DNA of 64,000 nt from IMG/VR virus record IMGVR_UViG_3300042453_003699, positions 1-64,000 of that record; one strand, written 5' to 3'. Within the stretch, counting starts at the first letter, position 1; every line of letters begins with the position of its first letter. Shown one piece after another: positions 8,443 through 37,759 of the stretch. Both the position numbers and the translations under genes were made by a program. The notes under the pieces are model-generated. The model was not told where the DNA came from. It did no database searches and was given only the letters and a program-made list of their open reading frames with translations. The DNA is from a virus.

Positions 8443-8493
8443 TTCGGCGGAAAACTTTTTGATTTCGGCGGAAATCTTGAATACAATTTCCGT
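8443..8493 (+). promoter_or_regulatory. Sigma70-type promoter overlapped by two TTCGGCGGAA boxes
   Basis: TTGATT(8459-8464)-17 bp-TACAAT(8482-8487)-6 nt-ATG; boxes at 8443-8452 and 8464-8473. Confidence 0.7.
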
Positions 8494-17541: not shown

Positions 17542-17582
17542 TTGGTCCTCCGCCGAAAACAGACTATCGCGCTAATCGGGTT

Positions 17583-18422
17583 ATGTCTATATTAGTATCA
17601 GGGGGCGCTTTGAAAAGATTCACAGGGGCGGTAAAGCCGTTTTTCAATCTGGATGGTCTGAATCTCACTATTAGATATGGCGAGGTTGTTTCTCTTGCGG
17701 AGTGGCAGACGAGTCACCCGAGCTTTCGTTTTGCCTTAGAGAATGGGTGGGTAGTCTCCGTGGATCGCAAAACTATCGTCTTCAACGCCGAAACCCCAAA
17801 GAAGCCAAGTAACGCTATGCGTTCTAAAAGAAAGAAATCCGCCGAAATCGTACAGGAGTTGCCAGAAAGCGGTTTAGATCCTGTGATTCTTCAAACAATC
17901 TTGGATAAGCAGGAGGGGTTCGTGCGACAAGCCCAAAAAACCTTTGAACGCCTAACGGCTCAGAAAAAAGAACCAGAGCAACCGACGGTAACGCCTGAGA
18001 TGTTTGCCTCGATGCTAGAGAACCAACGCAAGATGATGGAGATGCTCGAAAAAGAGAAACAGCAACCAGTGCCCCAAGCCCCCGCCTTGGATCAAACCGC
18101 AGTGCTGAATGCTCTCAAGCTCCTGACTAATGAGGTCAAGCGTCTTCAAGAATCAAAACCATCAGAAGCGTCTGTGAATACCGACCAGATTTTAGAGGGC
18201 GTAAAACAAGTAATGTCCCAGTTCAGTCCGTCCTCGGGTTCCTATAATGGAACTAAGAAAGACCCAAGTGGCTTTCAGATACGGGATGATTTTGAAGAGA
18301 AGTTCATTCCAAAAGTAGAAGACTTAGAAGTGAAGAACTCAAATATCGTAGCCCAAGAAAAGGACTCAGGAAGTGTTGAGGAGGCTCTCGCGGCTCTCCG
18401 AAAACTCAAGGAGAAGAAATAA
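17583..18422 (+). CDS. Coiled-coil protein translationally coupled to the actin-like ATPase
   Basis: TAATG overlap with the next gene; short helical segments; C-terminal amphipathic helix 'SVEEALAALRKLK'. Confidence 0.65.
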   Translation: MSILVSGGALKRFTGAVKPFFNLDGLNLTIRYGEVVSLAEWQTSHPSFRFALENGWVVSVDRKTIVFNAETPKKPSNAMRSKRKKSAEIVQELPESGLDPVILQTILDKQEGFVRQAQKTFERLTAQKKEPEQPTVTPEMFASMLENQRKMMEMLEKEKQQPVPQAPALDQTAVLNALKLLTNEVKRLQESKPSEASVNTDQILEGVKQVMSQFSPSSGSYNGTKKDPSGFQIRDDFEEKFIPKVEDLEVKNSNIVAQEKDSGSVEEALAALRKLKEKK

Positions 18423-19468
18423 TGGAACAGTTGCAAAACCAATCAGTCCCCGCAAGCCCTGTCGCTAAGGATAAGAAGTATCTTGTTCGCGGGTTGGATA
18501 TTGGGACAGGTACAATCATCGCATCCTATCTTGATGAAGCCTCCAATACGGTAAAAAGCAAGCGGGTTCGCGACGCATTCGTATCTCTTGCGGTCGAACA
18601 GAAGCAGATGCTCAAGCTATCAAACATTTCGTACATTGAGGAAGGTGATCGAGTCATCATTGTCAGCGACGATGCCGCTAACATCGCCAACATCTTCAAT
18701 CAGCCTCTTCGCCGTCCTCTCAGTCGAGGAACGATCTCCCCTTCAGAGATCGAAGCACAGAAGGTTATCAAGCACCTCTTTCGTGAAGTTTTGGGGGAGG
18801 CGCAGGTGCCCGGATCGGTATGCGTGTACTCTATCCCCGCAAATCCGCTCGACGCAGATCAAGATGTAACTTTTCACGAAATGATTATGGGGCAAATGCT
18901 TGAAAGCCTCGGTTGGAAAGCAGTCGCCGCGAATGAAGCACAAGCCATCGTTTATTCCGAGTGCGCCGACACCATGTTCAGCGGATTTGCCATGAGCTTC
19001 GGAGCAGGGATGGTCAACTGCGCTCTTTCATACAAGTCTATCCCTCTTATCACTATGTCGGTTGCCCGCTCTGGGGACTATGTGGATGAGCAATCCGCCA
19101 AGGCTACTGGGCTGTCTCCTGCAAAAACTTGCGCTATCAAAGAGAAGGGCGTGGATCTTCTCGCCCCGAAGGGTCGCGAGCAAGAAGCAATAGCAGTCTA
19201 TTACAAGGCGCTCATCAAGTATGCTCTTACGAACTTTATCGAAAAGATTAAGTCCCAGAATGTCATGGCGCAGATCGACCTGCCTGATTCCATTCCGGTG
19301 GTAGTCGGCGGAGGCACATCGCTCCCCATCAACTTCCTTGCTGTGGTCAAGGAAGAGGTGAACCGCCTAAAGGGATTTCCGTTTTCTGTGACTGACATTC
19401 GCCATGCAAAAGACCCGCTGTATGCAGTTTCTAGGGGGCTTCTCATCATGGCTCAGAACCAAGACTAA
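18422..19468 (+). CDS. Actin-like ATPase (MreB/MamK/ParM superfamily)
   Basis: Phosphate-1 'GLDIGTG', connect-1 'NEAQA', phosphate-2 'SFGAGMVN', adenosine 'VVGGGTS', connect-2 'PLYAVSRG'. Confidence 0.88.
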   Translation: MEQLQNQSVPASPVAKDKKYLVRGLDIGTGTIIASYLDEASNTVKSKRVRDAFVSLAVEQKQMLKLSNISYIEEGDRVIIVSDDAANIANIFNQPLRRPLSRGTISPSEIEAQKVIKHLFREVLGEAQVPGSVCVYSIPANPLDADQDVTFHEMIMGQMLESLGWKAVAANEAQAIVYSECADTMFSGFAMSFGAGMVNCALSYKSIPLITMSVARSGDYVDEQSAKATGLSPAKTCAIKEKGVDLLAPKGREQEAIAVYYKALIKYALTNFIEKIKSQNVMAQIDLPDSIPVVVGGGTSLPINFLAVVKEEVNRLKGFPFSVTDIRHAKDPLYAVSRGLLIMAQNQD

Positions 19469-19478
19469 GGGAGTGTAG

Positions 19479-20834
19479 GTGTACTACTACTTATCCCGAG
19501 AGGTAAAACGACGATTCATTGAGGAGATGCGGGAAATTTTCAAAGAGTATCCCGGTCTCCAAAAGATGAAAGTATCCGATAAGTTTCCCTACCAAGAGAG
19601 ACCTCAATACGGTCTTGTCGTCAAAAATGTCTCTGGAAACCCTATTCCGTTGGCAGGGGACAACTTCATCGGGACCGTCATAAGTCATTGCTTCTTAGCG
19701 AAACTCAAAGGCAAAAAAGGTCTTTTACTCGATTGGGTTCGCGAGAACCCAGAACAAGTTACGGTCTTTGTCGAAGAGGATCTTTCCTCTCAGGTGGACG
19801 GATCTAGCCGAGAGTTTCTCCTACAGCATTTTCCTACAATCGGGTCTCAAAGTATTGAGTTGGCTCAAAGAGGGGATCGCGCCGTCGAAGTTCTTGTCAA
19901 CGGAAAGCCTTTTGTCGTTCCGATGTCTTTCCAATCTAAAAAGATCATTCTTCCGGTCGCACCTGCGATGGGAACCAACCTTGTTGCCAAGTATTATCGT
20001 CGGGGTCTGGCAGATGCGGGTCTTTATTATGTAGAGGTCATGACGACTACGGCAGGTTCGGCTACGGTGATGGTGGACACTCTTCTCGACTACGAGTCCA
20101 TAATCATTGAATCCGCTACTGGGGCTGAGTCCTCGTTCAGCCTCCCTCACTTCCCTGTTCACGATAAGACTTTTTCTCTCATCGAAAACGATTCCTTCGT
20201 GATGACTGAGGGTGTTCACTACACGATCAATTTGCAGACGGGGGTTGTTACCTTTTTGAACAACCCAGAAGACCCGACTCAAAAGCTAAGACCTACCTCA
20301 AGTTACCGAGTTCAGTACAAGTACCAAGGACCGTCTTTCGGTCCCTTCACGGTTAAACCGTCATCAGCTTCGTATGATATAATTCCGGGCGTGACGCTTG
20401 CCTTCTCCAACTGGCTAGAGGTCGGGGACAAGCAAGTTGTGATCGTAAGTCCGACTCGTGAGGAGGTCTCTCAGGAGTACGGAGGTCACTTTGAGGTGAG
20501 CTTGAGTCTGGACATTTACAGCCGAGATCCCGTTCAGCGAGAACTCATAGCCGATTTGCTTGCTGTGAAAGTCTTCGGGGAGATCAAGCCAAGATTTGAT
20601 TCTCAAGGATTAGCTATTGTTAGCGTATCACTCAATGGGGAATCCGAAGACATTTACGACGAAAACACAGACACCGTTTACTACATGGCAGGGATGGATG
20701 TCTCGTTCAACACGGATTGGCGACTGTACGCCCCGATGATTCCTAAGATTAAAACACTTAGCCTTGATGTTGAGGTCGTTCAATCACTGAATGATTTCAG
20801 GGTCAGCTTTAGCCAAGGGGAGTCGATAAAGTAA
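19479..20834 (+). CDS. Tail completion/terminator-like protein with Ig-like insertions
   Basis: Lies before the sheath gene; 'SLSLDIYSRDPVQRELIADLL' core; inserted beta modules shared with the sheath. Confidence 0.55.
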   Translation: MYYYLSREVKRRFIEEMREIFKEYPGLQKMKVSDKFPYQERPQYGLVVKNVSGNPIPLAGDNFIGTVISHCFLAKLKGKKGLLLDWVRENPEQVTVFVEEDLSSQVDGSSREFLLQHFPTIGSQSIELAQRGDRAVEVLVNGKPFVVPMSFQSKKIILPVAPAMGTNLVAKYYRRGLADAGLYYVEVMTTTAGSATVMVDTLLDYESIIIESATGAESSFSLPHFPVHDKTFSLIENDSFVMTEGVHYTINLQTGVVTFLNNPEDPTQKLRPTSSYRVQYKYQGPSFGPFTVKPSSASYDIIPGVTLAFSNWLEVGDKQVVIVSPTREEVSQEYGGHFEVSLSLDIYSRDPVQRELIADLLAVKVFGEIKPRFDSQGLAIVSVSLNGESEDIYDENTDTVYYMAGMDVSFNTDWRLYAPMIPKIKTLSLDVEVVQSLNDFRVSFSQGESIK

Positions 20835-37600: not shown

Positions 37601-37759
37601 AGAAAAGGCGGAGACCCCAACGGATCAAAATGGTCTGTGACCTATGTGGTTGGCACTGAAACAGGAGCCAAGGACATTATCATTTCTCAGATCGAGTATG
37701 TCCAGATCAAGTCGCTGTCCATCACTTACGCAAACACTGGGCAGGTGTTTAGCTCATGA
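34643..37759 (+). CDS. Baseplate J-like wedge protein (gp6-like)
   Basis: 'DLKPGQVLRD', 'GTIGNV.AG.I', 'G.D.ESN..L..R', 'GKVDIYV', 'LGQSIYQSDII..V..V.GV'. Confidence 0.88.
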   Translation: MSVSAPQILFPTSEPAFSTNLSHIYLSGISEIGVSSILVNGVTAGTTVDPSGNWSWSGTLRAGENIFVVQSVKDNDLSTSDQVSIIYDAGLDTTQLVDLPTGIRIRQGRNNITLAVPLLTDSSFVGFNFYGSENVGGGSTGYTLLNTAPISNVVFFEDQRTQLSKVVTKSGSQETTTVVENVERINFTQFVHDRLNQPLGNSPITEKNHYVVSAVIFDPFNKVLIESGYSEELSGVPIVIDTRLKEIDQRTEQDFRLSLIDQMLQANEGLDLKPGQVLRDVVIDPASSLFARMFTILRFINTSQSFPTLLAFDDADGDSVSDPVLTSAEKNSLRLALLVPEDSADLVQQLIDSAFDKLAGNVNKTRLPARESVGEITVYTKKRPDKDAVVQAGAIVETLADQTNNTPSVRFECLSGFVLRVADLENYFNATNNRYEFKIPIRASVAGTIGNVEAGKIVSPASGFDPVFAVVNDFATAFGEDLESNSSLAQRALLAFMSVDSGTEAGYFSNTVAVKGVTRAKIVSANAPLMQRDLDPIREIHSFGKVDIYVQGKSNRQVSETFGFAYKKVLNERFYIQNRNFMRFNTINPLVDEVHPIFKLIEVRNVSRNLVYDLTNAVITNDGNVIDLDETILANQLIGLGINDIIRVSYVYRRSDNIKLNFQPVERIISVSGSKSGDLTEDNFQLYRKDDPLLLGRSTSATDEVQFTFANGVPNAEMEVVTNENIVLIGTQAQALSNVGVDLSTLYVTDTDANPYVVNVDYEIIPGDAKTQTSIARTEDSSIPSGSVVYVSYESGELMTVNYEINDILTTVQDKIDEMKHLTADVVVKSAQPTLIDLDFTVSLDSGADPVTVDRNIRTALTNFLSSAKLGQSIYQSDIISVVESVIGVRFVVVPLSKMVKSSGVQVIREVLANPQFFLYQTGSVSAYRSIEKLNSNTTDRGGPDYEFKGVFENDFLLEMQVSDTTVSGGSGRAYISENGTLIVSPRKGGDPNGSKWSVTYVVGTETGAKDIIISQIEYVQIKSLSITYANTGQVFSS

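Follow-up and report, generated by a model that had tools for sequence, protein, structure and literature searches.

A volactin-family actin homologue and a candidate docking adaptor in the neck/tail module of huge phages

Two overlapping genes in IMG/VR virus record IMGVR_UViG_3300042453_003699 encode a full-length member of the volactin family of actin homologues and, immediately upstream of it, a protein that sequence comparison supports as its dedicated partner. The stretch analyzed (herein the window) is the first 64 kb of this linear, 78,033-bp record, whose completeness is estimated at 47%; it derives from a very large freshwater bacteriophage, as a genome fragment. The partner (279 aa; positions 17583 through 18422, + strand) was delineated from the open reading frame (ORF) list, an AlphaFold2 (AF2) model, and a family profile; the actin (348 aa) occupies 18422 through 19468 on the same strand. 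In our view the pair is best read as a volactin filament of the phage and its docking adaptor, a reading to which we give a probability of about 0.6. A preliminary description of the same DNA, made from the sequence letters, had proposed an actin-like ATPase translationally coupled to a coiled-coil partner at the head of a set of tail genes. The two coupled ORFs are indeed present: their TAATG stop/start overlap lies at 18420 through 18424 and an AAGGAG ribosome-binding site stands 8 nt 5' of the actin ATG, the whole coupling element spanning 18408 through 18424 (+ strand).

The actin and its viral relatives

Against Pfam, the 348-aa protein matches Volactin (PF25216) and no other family, with a score of 221.3 bits (cut-off 35; E = 2.9e-65) over model positions 3 through 321 of 321; a genome search recovers the same actin at 221.2 bits. 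Every testable defining feature of the family is present, and the protein is a full-length member. By the same model, haloarchaeal homologues reach 448 bits and planctomycete ones 276 bits. The closest solved structure by profile is MamK (Protein Data Bank [PDB]: 5jyg, 5ljv, 5ljw; E = 1e-10), followed by FtsA and an actin-family entry near E = 4e-4. Neither MamK nor MreB is the best family-level match of the window actin, and the MreB_Mbl family reaches just 24.5 and 19.6 bits in cellular volactin homologues, below its cut-off of 27. The profile search that the preliminary description had called for bears out membership of the actin family.

All five actin-fold motifs that had been read from the translation are found: GLDIGTG (residues 24 through 30), NEAQA (171 through 175), SFGAGMVN (192 through 199), GGGTS (296 through 300), and AVSRG (335 through 339). 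Across 76 phage, 55 Planctomycetota, and 22 Halobacteria sequences, D26, G28, T29, N171, E172, S192, G194, G196, M197, N199, G297, G298, and G339 are invariant and T299 is nearly so. The serine at phosphate-2, remarked on earlier as a departure from the usual aspartate, is real; because S192 is invariant in all three lineages (153 sequences), the S-x-G-x-G-M-x-N loop is a family signature rather than a defect of the window gene. Haloarchaeal volactins carry the same serine, and VolA, the haloarchaeal type protein, polymerizes dynamically in vivo (PMC10869688). In one metagenomic homologue (P0099, 562 aa), an intein of ∼200 aa (PF14890) is inserted exactly after N199 (SFGAGMVN/C...VHN/CALSYK, slashes marking the junctions), and since such a position is the usual mark of a strongly conserved functional site, the phosphate-2 loop qualifies as one.

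Relatives in the protein database number 203, and all 120 of those listed have a PF25216 match. A scan of IMG/VR with the actin alignment yielded at least 556 viral contigs, many of 200 to 529 kb, and a volactin gene is present, too, in a pair of uncultured huge phages (485 and 595 kb); no cultured phage with such a gene is among the relatives found. Five genomes of 356 to 529 kb encode exactly one volactin each, and the tubulin family (PF00091) has no match in these five. The closest long relative, with an actin 84% identical to that of the window, has a 355,874-bp genome that bears direct terminal repeats and a completeness rating of 100%. The entire neighborhood is syntenic between the two, and on this basis the window is a piece of a huge phage, with a genome of roughly 350 kb.

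Within the gene block, the actin is the slowest-evolving member: it is 96% and 84% identical to its counterparts in the two nearest lineages, compared with 79% and 65% for the sheath, 74% and 57% for the tail terminator (p451), 63% and 57% for the Neck1-like protein (p161), and 65% and 36% for the partner. Mean column identities follow suit (actin, 45%; p451, 40%; p161, 26%; partner, 16%). A FastTree phylogeny of the 153 sequences unites Planctomycetota in a single clade (local support, 100%) and places the phage actins in a group of their own, nested in neither cellular group, with the window lineage as a long branch inside it; two long-branch rows of this tree are unstable. As the tree is unrooted, no donor can be named. 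Our literature searches found no paper describing volactin-type actins in phages or Planctomycetota, nor any relevant one on actins of huge phages; in the literature searched, volactin is described only in archaea (2024). In these uncultured huge phages, hundreds in number, volactin is a single-copy, slowly evolving hallmark gene with its own adaptor in the neck/tail module.

The partner and a terminal peptide shared with cellular volactin loci

The AF2 model of the partner has a well-defined N-terminal domain (residues 10 through 62; predicted local distance difference test [pLDDT] about 95) built from four strands, two helices, and a further strand. A disordered Pro-rich linker follows, then four separate helices (residues 100 through 214), a disordered acidic stretch, and a terminal helix (residues 265 through 277). 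The helices and the amphipathic end of the protein agree with the preliminary description, although its term "coiled-coil" overstates what are predicted to be separate helices. No fold match reaches Z ≥ 5 (best Z for the N-terminal domain, 4.8), and the protein atlas holds no usable match for the partner. Its net charge, counted on the sequence, is about +2.

Among 57 members of the partner family, only two positions stand out: P243, in a (D/E)EPxFIPSxI motif that reads EEKFIPK in the window (residues 238 through 244; nt 18294 through 18314), is nearly invariant, and L272, in the terminal helix, is invariant. The terminal helix is the most conserved part of the protein. In the window this amphipathic basic segment, SVEEALAALRKLKEKK (residues 264 through 279; nt 18372 through 18419, + strand), is the proposed volactin-docking peptide, a role suggested by a phage-only profile, its reciprocal, and L272. 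Searched with the family profile, 74 of 84 phage loci yield exactly one ORF each. Among 1.84 billion representative proteins (50% identity clusters), the profile has 1,521 matches, of which 1,081 have E ≤ 1e-10; all 150 of those listed are stand-alone proteins of 175 to 256 aa.

Volactins encoded by cells were sampled with one genome per prokaryote species, 80 of 299 loci being kept. These comprise ∼55 loci of Planctomycetota, including chromosomes of 6 to 8 Mb, and ∼23 of Halobacteria; two others are phage contigs binned into metagenome-assembled genomes. The cellular homologues are 36 to 40% identical to the phage actin over its full length. Homologues of the terminator, Zn-ribbon protein, sheath, and Neck1 were absent from the cellular volactin loci, as were matches to the phage partner family profile. 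Nevertheless, cellular volactins of both groups are directly preceded by a same-strand gene that has no other relationship to the phage partner: in Planctomycetota a helical (coiled-coil-like) family of about 260 to 480 aa, and in Halobacteria a protein of ∼305 aa with four transmembrane (TM) segments (Pfam DUF7139). The latter corresponds to HVO_2016, the CdpA-like protein whose gene adjoins volA, as noted by Liao et al. (PMC12126565); VolA and HVO_2016 themselves lie outside our alignments. The name DUF7139 appears in no paper found. Downstream of the planctomycete volactins (L089 through L166, from chromosomes and metagenome-assembled genomes), on the opposite strand, a conserved gene of ∼1,000 aa recurs in 17 loci.

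What the upstream neighbors have in common with the phage partners is a peptide, A-x-x-L-K-x-L-[KR] or A-x-L-K-x-L-[KR], within the C-terminal phage consensus gvDDAAxALKALRKxKK. The planctomycete C terminus, GGIAANLARLKKLKGGG, is the closest match to the phage tails; the haloarchaeal neighbor ends in two copies, SGVDxQVAGLKGLKGGE and STVDDQTAKLKELREQ. Phage partner C termini alone were used to build a 28-aa profile, which was searched, unfiltered, against all 7,234 six-frame ORFs from 78 cellular loci. It gave 41 ORFs at E < 1, every one of which is the ORF immediately upstream of volactin, and that ORF ranked first within its locus in 56 cases out of 77. The reversed profile returned one match at E < 1, not adjacent to volactin, and selected the upstream ORF in 8 cases out of 77. 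Reciprocally, a profile of planctomycete C termini searched against 7,803 phage ORFs gave six at E < 1, all six at the C terminus of phage partners (reversed control, 0). By these sequence comparisons, a candidate docking peptide, new here, is common to phage partners and cellular volactin neighbors.

The relationship to the haloarchaeal system can now be stated more closely. The phage protein belongs to the same Pfam family as volactin of Haloferax volcanii (VolA, HVO_2015), matches the family model over the full length, and shares the motifs that are invariant in haloarchaeal members; in both, a same-strand upstream gene bears the peptide. Identity to the haloarchaeal homologues compared is nonetheless 36 to 39%, and the phage sequences sit in a separate clade. 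Where the haloarchaeal neighbor has its 4-TM DUF7139 domain, the phage partner has a small soluble N-terminal domain, and the phage genes are part of a virion operon, without a cell-shape role. Planctomycetota volactins (36 to 40% identity over the full length, same motifs) come with the partner end nearest the phage tails, but their loci lack neck, terminator, and sheath genes and the rest of their partner is unrelated to that of the phages. An undescribed actin system is thereby indicated in a phylum with much-debated cell biology.

Gene order, proposed mechanism, and rival explanations

Iterated profiles from the window proteins were searched against the 84 phage loci, of which 58 were testable upstream and 65 downstream of the actin. 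The usual order is a decorated protein of ∼460 aa, a Neck1/tail-completion-like protein, partner, actin, tail terminator, Zn-ribbon protein, and sheath (1,400 to 2,500 aa). Of the 58 loci, 57 encode a partner on the same strand no more than 3 kb upstream, the exception being the most divergent, the 595-kb phage; the partner is directly adjacent to the actin in 30 of 58, frequently with a 4-nt overlap, and one or two genes sometimes intervene. Within 6 kb downstream, the terminator is found in 53 of 65 loci, and the Zn-ribbon protein and the sheath in 52 of 65 each; a Neck1-like protein lies within 3 kb upstream in 46 of 58. The linkage of the pair to tail genes is strong, not absolute, and synteny across large phages, which the preliminary description had asked to see, is evident. 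The Neck1-like gene is mostly just 5' of the partner in relatives; in the window it is 3' of the sheath. In a subset of huge phages (L010, at 9134 through 9925, and ∼20 others), a Dps/ferritin-like gene (motif HQSHHWxTRG..FYGDHLLFERLYN..AERAVG; weak Pfam Ferritin and DUF5856 matches) separates partner and actin; it is absent from the window. This cluster of upstream ORFs had been considered as a diverged partner and was rejected (hhalign probability 0.1%, weak Ferritin match).

In the window, the partner appears to head a five-gene unit that ends with the sheath. Terminator candidates on the + strand within 17583 through 24049 have stems of 5 to 8 pairs (3 GC) and all lie inside coding sequence, and a strong terminator-like hairpin (14-bp stem, by far the longest listed, with 8 GC pairs followed by a T run; 24079 through 24110, + strand, from the terminator scan) stands 3' of the sheath; it is predicted to end or attenuate the partner-to-sheath unit. 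At the other end, only 41 nt separate the partner from a divergently oriented neighbor. This gap holds CTCCGCCGAA (17548 through 17557, + strand; 25 nt 5' of the partner ATG), a one-mismatch copy of a dispersed 10-mer, TTCCGCCGAA. The 10-mer occurs 29 times in the window with at most one mismatch (5.35 expected; none of 100 shuffles reached 29), and several exact copies stand 20 to 50 nt 5' of start codons. It is likely a phage promoter or regulator motif, in which case the copy at 17548 would mark the start of the transcription unit.

In the mechanism that we favor, the actin would bind nucleotide through its S-x-G-x-G-M-x-N phosphate-2 loop and most likely form filaments, as its archaeal relative does. 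The conserved, amphipathic, basic C-terminal helix of the adaptor would dock on the actin, leaving the phage-specific N-terminal domain (residues 10 through 62) and the helical middle to bind phage cargo. The variable N-terminal part would then decide where a filament attaches, through a membrane anchor in haloarchaea and a small soluble domain in phages. Within the family, dynamic filaments are known only for VolA of H. volcanii, where their tips touch the membrane (PMC10869688), and the 4-TM haloarchaeal neighbor fits such anchored tips. The pair would be the first genes of a transcription unit that also makes the terminator, Zn-ribbon protein, and sheath, so that filaments would be present during virion assembly, presumably late. 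They would probably organize or move neck or tail parts or filled heads inside the host; this cargo, which may be neck or tail parts, is proposed because the genes of the pair sit between neck and tail-terminator genes. That the upstream protein is an adaptor, as had been put forward earlier, gains from its presence in 57 of 58 loci, its conserved terminal helix, and the peptide in common with cellular volactin neighbors; the link from filament to cargo stays a proposal.

Several observations weigh against this reading. The Asp and Thr that MamK has in its phosphate-2 loop, and that are also found in MreB, are missing from the phage loop, and nucleotide chemistry may differ from that of either. 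The N-terminal domain of the partner has no recognizable fold, so the cargo is guessed from gene order. Individual peptide matches have weak E-values (1e-3 to 0.8), the case being carried by their position and the reversed control. Finally, 12 of 65 loci have no terminator and sheath within 6 kb downstream.

These same 12 loci bear on an alternative in which the pair acts locally, the actin-fold ATPase and its partner serving to chaperone or template the assembly of the neck-tail junction or of the very large decorated sheath, with no cell-spanning filaments. ASKHA-fold proteins include chaperones, the pair lies between Neck1-like and terminator genes in most relatives and heads the terminator-sheath unit in the window, and sheaths of 916 to about 2,450 aa are unusually big. 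Yet tail genes do not follow the pair in the 12 loci, the nearest relatives by profile, volactin and MamK, are filament formers, no Hsp70 family is among the Pfam matches, and the docking peptide recurs in cellular partners that have nothing to do with tails; we regard a local morphogenetic factor as unlikely.

It is rather improbable that the filaments instead segregate or position the phage genome or its replication sites, with the partner as a DNA-binding adaptor. Known actin and adaptor pairs of plasmids and prophages do so (ParM/ParR and AlpC/AlpA; PMC4446434), salactin partitions DNA in haloarchaea (PMC10869688), and huge genomes might require positioning. Here, however, no iterated centromere-like repeats occur near the pair, which lies in a virion module and not among replication genes; the adaptor is encoded upstream, its N-terminal domain is β-rich, the protein is only weakly basic, and neither the AF2 model nor the fold search gave a ribbon-helix-helix match. 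Slightly less probable still is a scheme in which the pair plugs into, or competes with, host volactin by way of a copied docking peptide and so reshapes or enlarges the cell. Chromosomal volactins do exist in Planctomycetota, and there is close similarity between the planctomycete tail ANLARLKKLKGGG and phage partner ends such as SDALKALKKLRKGG. A pure hijacker, though, would not need a highly conserved actin of its own, and the phage actins form their own clade, not nested in Planctomycetota.

A dedicated filament with a docking adaptor remains our preferred reading, and known systems help to place it. ParR docks on ParM via its C-terminal helix. AlpC, the actin of prophage CGP3, is paired with AlpA (PMC4446434). 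The phage volactin pair follows the same logic, an actin-like filament with a small adaptor encoded alongside, and is a member of neither system: it belongs to another actin family, has its adaptor upstream, occupies a virion module, and lacks a centromere, parC-like iterated repeats between 16000 and 20000 being limited to weak two-copy repeats of chance quality. ParM and AlpC come from plasmids or a single prophage, unlike phage volactin, a hallmark of a huge, lytic-type phage clade. These differences, with the single-copy gene in complete genomes of 356 to 529 kb, support the earlier view that this is not a plasmid Par locus. MamK (5JYG, 5LJV, 5LJW), which aligns magnetosomes, is a filament-forming bacterial actin that organizes large cargo; it differs in being related below the family level, in its canonical D-x-G-x-G-T-T-D phosphate-2 loop, and in its partners and cellular context.

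The phage cytoskeletons known so far are mainly PhuZ, a tubulin from nucleus-forming jumbo phages, and a small number of plasmid-like actins. The PhuZ spindle positions or transports large viral structures in those phages and, like the proposed volactin filament here, is a cytoskeleton encoded by very large phages; its fold is that of tubulin, not actin, it is not encoded in a tail operon, and it has no known docking adaptor of this kind. Phage volactin is an analogue, not a relative, of the PhuZ spindle. The earlier suggestion of an actin counterpart to PhuZ is partly supported: the five huge genomes with no tubulin-family match fit an actin in its place.

A broader scheme, which we offer tentatively and hold to be considerably less certain than the phage system itself, is a modular volactin cytoskeleton across Halobacteria, Planctomycetota, and huge phages. 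One docking helix would be combined with interchangeable anchors (a 4-TM membrane protein, a helical coiled-coil-like protein, and a virion-directed domain), and the phage filaments would transport filled heads and tails, or line them up, so that they can be joined. If true, no earlier case of an actin-based virion assembly line would exist among viruses of prokaryotes. The shared peptide also has consequences outside phages: if it docks as proposed, Haloferax volcanii with an HVO_2016 that lacks its terminal motif would be expected to lose the membrane attachment of its volactin filament tips.

Neighboring genes and other features

The tail genes that the preliminary description had placed downstream of the pair are borne out by fold comparison and profile. 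The 451-aa protein encoded at 19479 through 20834 (+ strand) was modeled by AF2 with a pLDDT of 87.7. The model matches a neck chain of phage 812 (8q01_M; Z = 14.9, root-mean-square deviation [rmsd] 3.8, 164 residues aligned), chains of phages Pa193 (9b42_G; Z = 14.1) and E217 (8fvh_M; Z = 13.6), and lambda gpU (3fz2_C; Z = 11.3, rmsd 3.1, 125 residues aligned); on this modeled, gpU-like fold, p451 is assigned as the tail terminator. The PHROGs search gave no match for p451, the actin, or the partner. A 130-aa Zn-ribbon protein (20834 through 21226, + strand) follows, with a PF09723 match just below the cut-off (33.8 bits against 34.4; E = 3.5e-8), and then the 916-aa tail sheath (21299 through 24049, + strand; phrog_2839, E = 4.1e-27), whose relatives reach about 2,500 aa. 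Beyond the hairpin lies the 161-aa Neck1/tail-completion-like protein (24130 through 24615, + strand); phrog_5 matches 5 of 36 members of its family, with a best E of 4e-10. Terminase, portal, and major capsid genes were not found among the ORFs scanned; the contig is an estimated 47% fragment.

The terminator carries an inserted domain of ∼95 aa (residues 84 through 174) that recurs as three N-terminal copies in the sheath (residues 47 through 143, 145 through 235, and 301 through 399) and once in an 891-aa protein encoded at 37756 through 40431 (residues 281 through 380). In relatives, the ∼460-aa protein 5' of the Neck1-like gene has the same domain. It is probably a surface decoration domain that makes the virion proteins unusually large. 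The idea that relatives encode two sheaths was dropped, as the small upstream "sheath" matches (450 to 700 aa) cover only the decoration domain and not the sheath core.

On the opposite strand, 5' of the partner, are genes for a two-domain family 2 glycosyltransferase (GT2), an RNase T-like exonuclease, and two small ORFs. Glycan modification of virion proteins is suggested by genes that lie among virion genes between 6146 and 16249; they encode a family 4 glycosyltransferase (GT4), a polysaccharide pyruvyl transferase, a 441-aa subtilase, and a 732-aa GT2 with two domains. Copies of TTCCGCCGAA in the window include those at 8443, 8464, 17004, 17548, 42975, 51344, 51364, 57685, 60481, and 63192. 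After the Neck1-like gene, three tandem paralogues of 378, 384, and 1,117 aa occupy 24612 through 30258; a domain of the first recurs in the third, with 34% identity along 108 aa in relatives.

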